Positions 30,701 to 35,100 of a stretch of DNA of 64,000 nucleotides are shown here, piece by piece. The DNA lies in contig CM119371.1 in the NCBI GenBank assembly GCA_051294905.1, forward strand, positions 36,642,001 to 36,706,000, given 5' to 3'. Position numbers and translations under genes: made by a program. Under the pieces are notes generated by a model. That model searched no databases, was not told the origin of the DNA, and worked only from the letters and a program-made list of their open reading frames with translations. The stretch comes from Botryllus schlosseri (Eukaryota). The stretch's first letter is position 1, and every line of letters starts with the position of its first letter.

Positions 30701-32133
30701 TTGTCGGATACTCTCAGGTTGCAAATCCTCAAGTAAGGTGTCATAAATATCTCCAGTTCATCCCGTGTTGTTGCAGCCCACTTGCCAAAGTCTTTGTGTT
30801 CATATTTCTTTTCAAAGGAATCAAAGAAAACGTCAAGTTCATGCTTTACTCTAGCAATTTTATCCCCCATATTTTCTTAATATAGAGAATTTTATATTGA
30901 TTATTAGACCGGAACTTTCCTTAATAACATTTCCTACATTCATATGAGTATAACAACACTTCTAGAGTATTCAATAATTGTGATAAGCATACTATATACA
31001 TAACAATTTACTGTGCATACATATCAGTCCATTTTCGTGCCGTCTTCTGATAACTATCATAATCATCCCGATACAGTCTGGCGCTTTCAACATCCATTGG
31101 ATCTTCTGGGTTAGGGGAAGCCAACAATGACGAAATCGAGACCAATACTTTGCCCAACGTTAAAGCAGGTGACCATTCATGTGCAAGAATGTCAATACAT
31201 ATGGTACCCTTACGGCTTATATTCGGATGGAAAATTTTGGTTTCAAATTTGATCTTCGGAGGCTTGAATGGATATTCCGTTGGAAATTCGATTCTAAGGA
31301 GAAATGTCCCTTTTTCATATGGTGTTTTTGAGGGTCCGCGCAAAAGTGCTTGCCAAATATAGATATCTGACTCGTCCATCGGCCCTGCTTGCAAAATGAC
31401 AGGATTTGTTTGAATTTCTTGATCGATCTTTCGCCGTTCAACATGTAACCTATGTCTTGCCATTCGGTGTAGATTAATATTATCCAACAAAACTTGATAC
31501 ACACAGAAAGAAAAGAAAATATTACTAATTCAGTCGTTTATCCATAGTATACATAGCCCGTGAAAAACCGGCAATAGTTTTGCTAGTAATGTTCCAATCT
31601 TCATCAACATTAGCTATAGCCAACACATATCGTAGAAATACATACAAGTAGTATGCAGGGCTCTCTCCAAAGTTTTCTTCCACAATTTGCTCCAGTACTC
31701 TTTTGGCGCATTCCAATTGTTCCGCCACCTCATGGTCCCGGTATAGCCAGACAAGAAAATCTTTCAATACATACTCCATGTCATTGGCTGTCAACTTCGG
31801 AAAGTTTTCTATTCTTTCTTTTATTCGTTCATGTACAACTCCCATCTTTAGCCAAGCAACTCTGCTGTCAGGTATCGTAGGGTATAGACACGGTCTGAAC
31901 TTGTTCCGATTCAATTCCTTCTTCTGTGGATCTTTAGGCACATACTCATACTTTTCATGATTAACTTCCAACATGCCACAATCAAAGATCAAATAAATTA
32001 TTAATGTCTTAAAATTCCTTACACAAAAAAACCCAAACATTATTAAACATTCAACGAATCTCAATCAGCAAACCAACTCAATTACACACATAAAAGTTTT
32101 TAATTCTAGTTGTTATATTAAATATAGTACATG

Positions 32134-32164
<31 letters not shown>

Positions 32165-35100
32165 AAAATTCCTTTTTTTTTTTTTTTTTTTTTTTATATA
32201 TCCAATTGATATAGTGGAAAATCTGATGCAGTATATGTATCATTTCAGTTAATCATCTTTCAAACATCCTTTTATCCATTGTTCTGAAAAGCTCTCCTTC
32301 AGGGGATGCATACGAACAATATGTTGGTACCAAAGAAATTTGGCTTCCTTATAGTTTCCCAGTGTAATAATTGCAATCCTATTATGTTCTTTGATAGCAG
32401 CATGATACCCCAGAGCCTTGCCTTGCGGAGATAATGCACTCCCATAAACTTTGTCAACATACAGCGTCAGCATTCCAACAATGTCATTGGGTCTTGTCAT
32501 AGCCCATCTTTGCCATCTGTCGGAAATTTCCACATCTTCTTCATAATATTTACAGAACATGTCAAAATAATATTTCAAGTCGCACACTGCAGATTCATAT
32601 CCCGTTTGCAATAATTCCTGGTTACTTATGGTTCTTCGAGACATTCCTCTTAATCGCGTAATATAACGATTTTCGAAAAAGCGTCTTCTAAAATTGGAAC
32701 AGCAACAGTTTCAAATTCTCGAGCATTCAGAAGTAATGTTGCAGAATCTTTTAATTCCATTTGTGGTAATCTTTCATCCAGAAATTCTTCTGGTAGATAT
32801 TTATGAGCCGGATGTAATTTTAGAACAAGTCCAAACCATGTATATTGGGCCAGATCAAAATCTTTTGTAACAAAAACGCGAGCAATATCACTATGTGCGT
32901 CATAAAGCTTATCAAAAAGCTTTTCTGTCACATTCGCAAAACAATGATGAAGGTATTTCTTTATTAATTTTTTGAATTTTTCCTTTGGGGTATTTTTCCA
33001 TATCTCAAAATTTTGATGATGGTATTCCTGTTCAAACTCATCATAGTATTCATTAATTTGTTTCTTGGCTAGCGTAATTTCCCAATTCTCTAATACTCTA
33101 GTCATCTTAATACAGAATAAAATACTTTAAAATCATATGTTCAATTTTACGAATAATGGATTCATACGCGCAAAAGTAACTAGTAACGTTATGCATTATA
33201 CATATGCATCAAGAGCATTCATGCCACAAAATAATAGTCCTGCCTGCTCCATCAAGCTCTATACACCTTTATCTTTTCCAGTATTGTTTCACCACAAATG
33301 TTGCATCTTTCAGAGTTTGTTGCACATCTTTCACAACTACATAAATGTCCGCAAGGTATAAAAGTAATTTCACTTTTGTTTCTCTTGCAATTTTTGCAAA
33401 GCACACCCTCTTGTATTTCTTTCAAACTTTGCGCGATTTCATCCACCGACATTGTTTCTGCAACTGCTGCTTCTTTCGTTTCTTTGTTGTTGTTCACTTC
33501 GTGATTATTTTCAGATATGCTATCGCCTTGTTGTTGTGTTGTTTTCGTTGGACTGGCGGTAATTGTATTTACTGTCTCCAGTAAATCCTGAATTATATCA
33601 CCAGTAGAGAAATGATCATTAGTCTGTCTATTTATAGTTCCTTCTATTTGATCTCTCGTAAATCCCATGTCTTCCAGTTGCATCCTGTTTATGTATTGTC
33701 TAGATAACCTTGGTCGATTATGGTTCCTTCGTATCTCCTCTCGTGGTGCATCAAGACATATTGCATTCCTTATCGGTGGTCGATTGAGATTGGGATGTTC
33801 ATCTCTTAGTCGTAAAACGAAATCAATACCTTTCATTTGCAAAACATACTCACAACCAGGAAACCACTTTGCATGCTCTGTCCACGGCTCATCATTGTAG
33901 TTCCAGTTTTGTAATCCTCCATTGCAATAAAAGCATTTCGCCCTGTCCGAATCCCCTAGATAATACATACCCGCTTTAGCCAGTTGTTCCACTGTTGCGA
34001 GGATCCTGGGCCATTTTTCATTAAACGAAGATATTCTTTGCTGTAACGATGTCATATGCAAATTTATCGGGTAAAGGCAAGGGAATCTTTCCACCAACTG
34101 GAGTTGTTCTTCTGGCGATGGATCCGGAGGTTCTCCCCTATTAGTAGTTAACCTTTCAATTTTTATTTTAAGTTCATTATCTGCCTGATTTCTCTCGGAG
34201 TCTGTCAAGGGCATATTTCCTGCATACTCGTTACTTGCCATTTTGCATTTTTTAAAATGTCTTTTATGTTGTTCAAGGACATTATCAGTGGGTGCCCAAT
34301 TTCTCAGTACTCCTGAGCATGAAAAACATTGCGTTCTGTCAAGGTTTCCTAGGTAAAAAAATCCCTGTTTTGCCAATTCCCCTACCAAGTATGGAGTAGG
34401 ATAGGAAGGCCATTTGTCAAAGGTTCTTCTTCTCTCTAGTTCACTTCTCAAATTTGCTGATCGCAATGAAGTCTCATGTTCTTGGTCACAAATGTTCGCA
34501 AACACGGTTTGCGGTAAGGGACATTTTTCCTCTTTGATAGTCGGTCTTTGCACATTCCGATTAGTTTGTTGACTTCTTGTAGTAAGGTTAAGGTGGCACC
34601 TCATTTGTTCAAAAAGGAGCCTCCTTGAGCAATTTGAAATAGGCAAGTTATATCCATGTTGTATGGTCACCATGTCACAAGTAGATTTATGCCACTTGTC
34701 ATCAAAAGGATCATCTCCAGTGACCCATTTTTCCACAGATACGCCACAGCAGTAACATCTTACTCTATCTTGAAATCCTGTCCAATAGAAACCAGCAGCG
34801 GCTAGATAGCTTGGTATCACAGGAGTTTCTTTCGAAAAATGTTTGAACGTTGCAAGTCTGTAATGCTCAACCCGGTGATCTCCAGGTGGAATATAAACGC
34901 AATTATGTCCAGGAGGATCACGATCTCTTTTCATCAGAATGCCCATAGTTTCAATTCGGTCATTTCTCGGTGTAATCGCTTTCGATGGAACAGGCGTTCA
35001 ATAATACAGATCAAAATGTCTAAATATAACCATACCAATCCAACATTCTAGTAATAATACATAAACATTCTGTTAAAAAAAATATCATTATATAAGATTT

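Follow-up and report, generated by a model that had tools for sequence, protein, structure and literature searches.

A Merlin-ended gag-pol-env element of Botryllus schlosseri carries host-derived IAP and E2 genes whose standing as a cognate pair is doubtful

The window analyzed here, a stretch of 64,000 nucleotides of DNA from Botryllus schlosseri (GenBank assembly GCA_051294905.1, contig CM119371.1, positions 36,642,001 to 36,706,000 of the forward strand), contains a 40.3-kb mobile element with sharp ends (21706..62052 (-)), a Merlin-ended gag-pol-env carrier of two host-derived genes that encode an inhibitor of apoptosis protein (IAP) of 564 aa (33252..34946 (-)) and a ubiquitin-conjugating enzyme (E2) of 151 aa (31008..31463 (-)). 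The reading favored here, with modest confidence, is that the two are accessory genes that were captured separately, are under selection, and act mostly apart, the IAP as a survival factor or decoy working through its baculoviral IAP repeat (BIR) domains and the E2 in concert with host ligases. The initial annotation of this DNA had instead proposed a cognate pair of IAP ligase and UBE2D-type E2, a status that appears doubtful from the sequences given a RING domain stripped of its E2 contacts, separate donor genes, and patchy co-occurrence; nor are the two genes adjacent, as 1.79 kb and three other open reading frames (ORFs) lie between them. Mobile elements, moreover, have a use for either gene by itself, since Mavericks carry E2s without an IAP and RING-less IAPs without an E2.

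The RING domain and C-terminal tail (residues 517-564; 33252..33398 (-)) retain eight of eight zinc ligands (C3HC4) and the C-terminal aromatic, features of a dimer-type RING. In cIAP1, as the cited work describes it, V573 and M575 touch UbcH5B, R606 is the linchpin (the R606A variant being defective), and F616 acts in trans within the dimer (PMC6349121). In the window's IAP these contacts are replaced (V573 by N519, M575 by K521, P603 by N549, and the linchpin R606 by G552), and among the positions compared H534, I550, and the aromatic Y562 of the tail alone are retained. Across the element copies, the equivalents of V573, M575, and R606 are N/Q/H, K/R, and G/D in all 26 rows (two of which represent one insertion), and V or I, P, and R or K at the three diagnostic RING positions occur in none of them, versus 40, 49, and 55 of 60 database homologues, the latter being 74 database IAPs less 14 without the RING pattern. 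The hydrophobic E2-contact residues and the linchpin arginine that characterize a cIAP/XIAP-type RING E3 are absent. The earlier description of both genes as intact, intronless, and equipped with catalytic residues is sound for the single open frames and for the HPN motif and C89 of the E2; it does not extend to the RING, whose contacts are replaced, or to BIR1, whose spacing is shifted. A RING has no catalytic residue of its own.

That the protein is an IAP with three BIRs and a RING is borne out by Pfam, which returns three BIR stretches (E 3e-59) and a RING (E 3e-9), and by a structure model comprising three confident BIRs, a three-helix segment (residues 416-462), and a confident RING. The helices, which have a weak Pfam match (E 0.012), are read by the present authors as a putative UBA-like segment, giving the order BIR1, BIR2, BIR3, UBA-like helices, and RING in a single open frame. 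BIR2 (approximately residues 165-237; 34236..34454 (-); C207, C210, H227, and C234) and BIR3 (approximately residues 298-370; 33837..34055 (-); C338, C341, H358, and C365) have the canonical zinc pattern C-x2-C-x16-H-x6-C by which the IAP (BIRC) family is recognized. BIR1 (approximately residues 25-95; 34662..34874 (-); C64/C67/H86/C90) has instead the ascidian-type spacing C-x2-C-x18-H-x3-C, as in Styela homologues, and despite this variant spacing it scores in Pfam and is modelled at a predicted local distance difference test value (pLDDT) of about 90. The BIR3 model superposes on the BIR3 domains of cIAP1 and XIAP at about 1.3 Å, and its predicted peptide groove keeps the Trp, acidic, and Trp positions, in agreement with cIAP1 BIR3 by both alignment and fold. 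The closest named IAPs are those of Styela clava and other ascidians; IAP-like proteins (P0030 and P0065), one with a canonical RING, are also annotated in Endozoicomonas, ascidian-associated bacteria, through either transfer or contamination.

The donor of the IAP lies in a cluster of multi-exon host genes at C12:7.16-7.55 Mb. The host genes have introns with GT donors at the places that correspond to element residues 65, 172, 235, 331, 364, and 440, and because all six have been precisely lost, with the frame unbroken, the element IAP is a spliced copy of a gene from this cluster, its intron loss being tied to reverse transcription; either the element took up an mRNA that was already spliced or a genomic copy was stripped of its introns during the RNA cycle of the element. 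Phylogeny against host genes, a check suggested by the initial annotation, places the IAP within the multi-exon C12 clade (support 100/100; 88 by SH-aLRT in a reduced quick tree) and the E2 within the clade of an array on C1. Monophyly of the host IAPs alone is marginally rejected (p 0.04); the IAP trees included 14 of the 74 database IAPs, and 7 of 34 rows were omitted from the reduced test. The third BIR of chordate IAPs is split, according to the available portion of one report (PMC13159474), which fits these findings. The nearest host RINGs, at C12:7.16 Mb (70%) and 7.23 Mb (66%), led to the host genes, as a genome search with a Phallusia IAP returned mobile copies only. Homology to host untranslated regions or introns was not found to reach more than approximately 10-15 bases past the coding parts. 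The donor cluster itself holds an inserted cargo-poor sister element, at C12:7.40-7.43 Mb (L128, L139).

The E2, a single open frame with a strong Pfam match (UQ_con, E 7e-48), retains the active site of the UBC family (H79-P80-N81 and the catalytic C89) and two main ligase-binding loops of canonical type. Its helix 1 and backside site differ from those of UBE2D: the family to which it belongs has a hydrophobic residue in place of UBE2D K8 and an insertion after helix 1, and the equivalent of the backside Ser22 is Gln. The label of UBE2D-like applies only loosely: a canonical host copy scores 292 bits against human UBE2D2, and the element E2 170. It is 51-56% identical to canonical UBE2D versus 77-79% to the nearest host E2s, which occupy the end of the intronless host array C1:34.12-34.49 Mb, and in the tree it falls in the distal sub-clade of this array (100/99), 1.55 changes per site from the canonical UBE2D-like copies. 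Mainly on the identity and a shared insertion, the donor would appear to be this lineage-specific, UBE2D-derived, intronless host array rather than canonical UBE2D. The capture is old, to judge from a synonymous distance of 1.5-2.6 to the four nearest host copies and a drift in third-position GC content (0.37 versus 0.49-0.55 in host copies). Its route cannot be read from the lack of introns because the nearest host genes are already intronless; the proposal of retro-captured host mRNAs is thus upheld for the IAP, with its six introns precisely gone, and indemonstrable for the E2. The canonical UBE2D-like host genes also form an intronless tandem group (C6:17.84-17.90 Mb; L114, L115). When metagenomes were scanned for relatives of the E2, the best 80 of 108 proved to be generic E2s without exception, of 42-59% identity, with no related element among them.

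The distribution of the two genes was followed across 53 env-bearing loci (55 match rows with two split matches merged), of which 28 have at least part of both genes, one the E2 only, one an IAP remnant only, and 23 neither; both frames are intact in 20. In the family of the window's element (family A), both genes occur in 26 of 31 loci and both frames are open in 18 of 31, while a divergent family keeps both genes, in the same order, in both of its members. Full-length IAP matches number 25 (at 64-100%) and element E2 matches 28 (at 72-100%), and because all share an identical gene order, a chance neighborhood is excluded. Two families whose pol is approximately 81-82% identical have neither gene before gag (four of four loci read), and in a distant sister family the E2 is missing and the IAP is reduced to a remnant without BIRs (four of four loci read). 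Absences of the IAP are softer than those of the E2 because only the best candidates were scored, namely 77 of 587 and 150 of 180 in the IAP searches and 124 of 124 in the E2 search. Within a lineage, then, the cargo is stably kept, yet elements of this type can do without it. In the distant sister family (L129-L132), the start of BIR1 is joined to the linker and RING with frameshifts, and a 145-aa RING-bearing frame is open in three of the four loci; a RING-only tree (62 columns) left this remnant unplaced, with supports below 70.

Where present, both genes are constrained. The pairwise ratio of nonsynonymous to synonymous changes (dN/dS) ranges over 0.11-0.22 in all nine pairs of the IAP and over 0.08-0.26 in all 11 element pairs of the E2, and the bootstrap interval stays below 1 in every case. 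Within the IAP, constraint is strongest on BIR2 and BIR3, with BIR2 (0.05-0.09) the most conserved domain; the RING and tail have a value of 0.14-0.15. In one whole-element comparison, the values were 0.10 for pol, 0.12 for gag, 0.11 for the E2, and 0.16 for the IAP. The two genes are thus not neutral pseudogenes, and their constraint is similar to that of gag and pol. On this showing, and with 28 loci holding both genes, the idea of captured host genes as element cargo survives the two outcomes that would have told against it, that is, neutral pseudogene copies or absence from other copies.

Under the favored reading, the RNA of the element would begin at a spliced leader before gag, with the IAP and E2 in its 3' accessory region and introns stripped along the way; the IAP would have entered as a spliced copy, or become one, through this RNA cycle, a route that is conjectural where the intron loss itself is plain. 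It would most likely act through BIR2 and BIR3 on caspases or pro-death peptides, keeping the producing cell alive. Its RING would fold and probably dimerize, yet have little or no ligase activity with ordinary E2s, and such a weak RING could leave the IAP stable and able to pair with, or dampen, host IAPs. The E2, drawn from the array at C1:34.1-34.5 Mb, is probably active, charged by the host E1, and at the service of host ligases, a use suggested because its ligase-binding loops are canonical.

Several observations weigh against this account. Purifying selection acts on the RING and tail, which therefore retain some role. The nearest host C12 RINGs have Q, K, I, and K at the equivalents of V573, M575, P603, and R606, which suggests that the RING was already non-canonical before capture, with a lysine linchpin kept by the host and lost by the element. 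Within the two E2-carrying families, the E2 is accompanied by an IAP in 28 of 29 loci, and the distances of the two genes are correlated (Mantel r 0.58), though this is expected from linkage alone. In the three of four RNA runs that were informative, sampled at 3-13%, depth on the IAP and E2 does not exceed about 1x, and the few E2 reads differ from the window copy and are assignable to no single locus. A tree in which the E2 is constrained to a clade with canonical UBE2D stands in the approximately unbiased (AU) test (p 0.196; 13 of 51 rows were omitted from the E2 AU tests), such that the array origin rests mainly on identity and the shared insertion, and a single IAP capture shared with Mavericks likewise stands (p 0.38). 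A co-adapted pair is also conceivable, as helix 1 is altered in the E2 family and the RING seems to have changed in the host already.

The foremost alternative, which is unlikely and nonetheless deserves attention, builds on the last of these points: a non-canonical RING and an altered E2 would have co-evolved as a private (orthogonal) pair in the two expanded host families, and the element would have collected both halves, obtaining a ligase apart from canonical UBE2D. It would account for RING changes older than the capture, as in the host C12 genes, for the conservation of the RING, for the hydrophobic residue at UBE2D K8 and the post-helix 1 insertion of the E2 family, and for a gene order that has stayed constant over a synonymous distance of approximately 1.6-2. 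It is harder to reconcile with the canonical state of the two main E2 ligase-binding loops, with the loss of the host linchpin lysine in the element (all 26 rows having G or D there), with the absence of the E2 from the family whose IAP is reduced to a RING-only remnant, and with the reshuffling of IAP and E2 alleles among copies, where nine discordant pairs occur among 18 copies. Marginally less likely again is the fuller proposition of a private ubiquitin module within a reverse-transcribing, transposase-integrated, env-bearing element, borne on a spliced-leader-capped RNA of approximately 40 kb; if true, retroelements would gain their first known E2-E3 pair, which would also be a naturally occurring orthogonal RING-E2 pair that does without a linchpin.

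The model of the initial annotation, an ordinary ligase pair of the cIAP-UbcH5 type that ubiquitinates caspases or signaling proteins, is improbable: the BIR-BIR-BIR-UBA-like-RING layout, the retained tail aromatic, H534, and I550, and the intact active site of the E2 would suit it, but the equivalents of V573, M575, and R606 are all replaced and the backside Ser22 of the E2 is Gln. Still harder to sustain is the notion that the genes are kept for the benefit of the host, as dispersed extra copies of IAP and E2, rather than for that of the element; the host has itself expanded both families and the cargo is dispensable in other element families, whereas constraint acts between element lineages at a level equal to that of gag and pol, single insertions decay (both frames persist in only 18 of 31 family-A loci), and little RNA is seen. 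Recent neutral processed pseudogenes, or a chance neighborhood, have nothing but low RNA depth in their favor and can be dismissed with near certainty on a dN/dS far below 1, a synonymous distance between E2 and host near saturation, and a fixed position in 28 loci.

Large DNA viruses commonly carry host-derived genes for apoptosis and ubiquitin control, whereas retroelements rarely do, and the initial annotation had deemed both genes atypical retroelement cargo. For the BIR, there is a precedent in Burro, the giant gypsy-like long terminal repeat (LTR) retrotransposons of planarians, which, like the present carrier, are giant and env-bearing and whose cargo includes BIR, BCL2-like, MATH/TRAF, and SUMO-like domains, related to apoptosis or ubiquitin; unlike the carrier, Burro elements have LTRs, an integrase, and cargo inside the polyprotein, and the accessible part of the report names no E2 or free three-BIR-RING gene (PMC6431247). 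In the carrier, by contrast, each cargo gene is an ORF of its own, and the host donors can be traced. A giant retrotransposon with BIR cargo is thus known already, while an E2, and an IAP together with an E2, are apparently new in a retroelement, no prior report of either having been found in open-access main texts; the supplements of PMC13159474 and PMC8502044 could list such genes.

Among viruses, African swine fever virus (ASFV) has a short IAP with a single BIR. Baculovirus IAPs such as Op-IAP3, which belong to insect DNA viruses and have two BIRs and a RING, are virus-borne, stabilized, and thought to work partly via host IAPs; the resemblance of this mechanism to that envisaged for the element IAP is a lead only. 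ASFV resembles the carrier in uniting an IAP (A224L) and an E2 (I215L) in one genome, where, so far as the accessible text of the cited report describes, they have separate roles in caspase-3 inhibition and in the targeting of interferon and NF-kB pathways, and it differs as a large DNA virus with no reverse transcription (PMC12172490). The cellular systems of cIAP1, cIAP2, and XIAP with UBE2D share with the cargo three BIRs, a UBA-like segment, a dimer-type RING with its tail aromatic, and the E2 fold and active site, within the coverage of the cited work (PMC6349121); in the element IAP, however, no CARD is seen and the RING lacks the equivalents of V573, M575, and R606, and the element E2 belongs to a divergent, lineage-specific branch.

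A further parallel is offered by adintoviruses and Mavericks, virus-like transposons for which captured anti-apoptotic IAP and Bcl2 homologues are described in the available part of the literature cited (PMC8502044). The Maverick-like elements of this genome, whose identity is the authors' tentative reading of a capsid and protease that have no Pfam match, draw on the same two host families as the carrier; they differ in replicating as DNA, in IAPs that lack a RING, and in that E2 and IAP never occur together in the loci read. Their E2s come from another branch of the same host array, and a single clade of element and Maverick E2s is rejected (AU p 0.0002). Next to these E2s lies either a Bcl-2-family gene (E 9e-20; L089, L090, and L093) or a caspase-domain gene (E 4e-13; L091 and L092). 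Palindromic elements of approximately 9-14 kb (L081-L088) also bear a RING-less three-BIR IAP of the same host clade in each arm. Many of the IAP and E2 copies of this genome are thus due to elements, and the recourse of two unrelated virus-like elements to the same two host families makes the control of cell death and ubiquitin a testable battleground between ascidian and element. As the donors are still in the genome and dozens of copies exist, selection is measurable, and whether the conserved RING without a linchpin is a decoy or a private ligase makes a clean question for biochemistry.

The carrier itself ends in imperfect inverted repeats of approximately 23 bp, flanked by a target duplication of 9 bp at the window copy and 8 bp in five of five other copies read at both ends. 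LTRs were considered at these ends and rejected; the two LTRs and retroviral integrase that define LTR retrotransposons and retroviruses are wanting. An IS1595 DDE transposase, short inverted ends, and an 8-9-bp target duplication, the hallmarks of Merlin/IS1595 elements, are all present, with two transposases of this type recognized by Pfam (60814..61653 (-) and 36099..36977 (-)). The env-like ORF (838 aa; 58168..60684 (-)), a putative fusogen with a basic cleavage-like site in its sequence and no Pfam match, is the feature on which the earlier suggestion of an infectious lifestyle rests, rather than the IAP and E2. The gag-like ORF (938 aa; 25517..28333 (-)) has one zinc knuckle slightly below the Pfam cut-off, and pol (21969..25424 (-)) has reverse transcriptase, RNase H, and Tpt1/KptA-like domains and no Pfam match to an integrase. 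The Tpt1/KptA-like domain (E 7e-11; 21969-22460 (-)) occupies the end of pol, the position expected for an integrase.

The copying of the element may be approached through two sites upstream of gag, which offer a concrete handle on it. The first is a DNA copy of the host spliced-leader exon (28885..28909 (-)), identical to the published chordate leader, as reported in the accessible part of an ascidian study (PMC3795323), and matched by thousands of mRNA 5' ends; RNA reads over 21600-41500 pile on approximately 30 bases at 28879-28909 and continue into unrelated sequence. Twelve loci, drawn from all five element families examined, have the leader before gag, with 24 of 24 bases kept in 11 of the 12 and divergent flanks, and a stacked partial leader repeat occurs in two loci, which suggests that the leader may be renewed by trans-splicing in each RNA cycle. 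The 70 bases that precede the start codons of the IAP and of the E2 showed no copy of the leader. The second is a primer-binding-site-like stretch (28642..28659 (-)) complementary to the 3' end of tRNA-Ile(AAT), situated 225 bases after the leader in five family-A loci and not found in other families at two or fewer mismatches. Together, the leader and tRNA-Ile site before gag point to a probable RNA cycle, and the element, whose genes lie on one strand, may represent a one-LTR-circle-like DNA form opened by the transposase between pol and transposase; the RNA that this picture calls for, beginning at the leader, was not seen among the reads. At three sister loci (C12:25.76 Mb, C1:24.30 Mb, and C3:0.62 Mb), pol is followed directly by the transposase and env, in a permuted or tandem layout.

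Further features accompany the cargo. Between the IAP and E2 lie three small conserved ORFs of 151, 131, and 171 aa (31525..33105 (-)) with no Pfam match, the first two of which form a four-member paralogue set with ORFs at 29799-30248 and 30412-30870. A leucine-rich repeat protein with a signal-peptide-like start (37715-38755 (-)) is conserved cargo too (dN/dS 0.16). Two poly(A) runs are found on the coding strand between the cargo genes (32134-32204), and a 77-base direct repeat occurs just upstream of the spliced leader (28912-28988) and again upstream of a 149-aa ORF (30293-30369).

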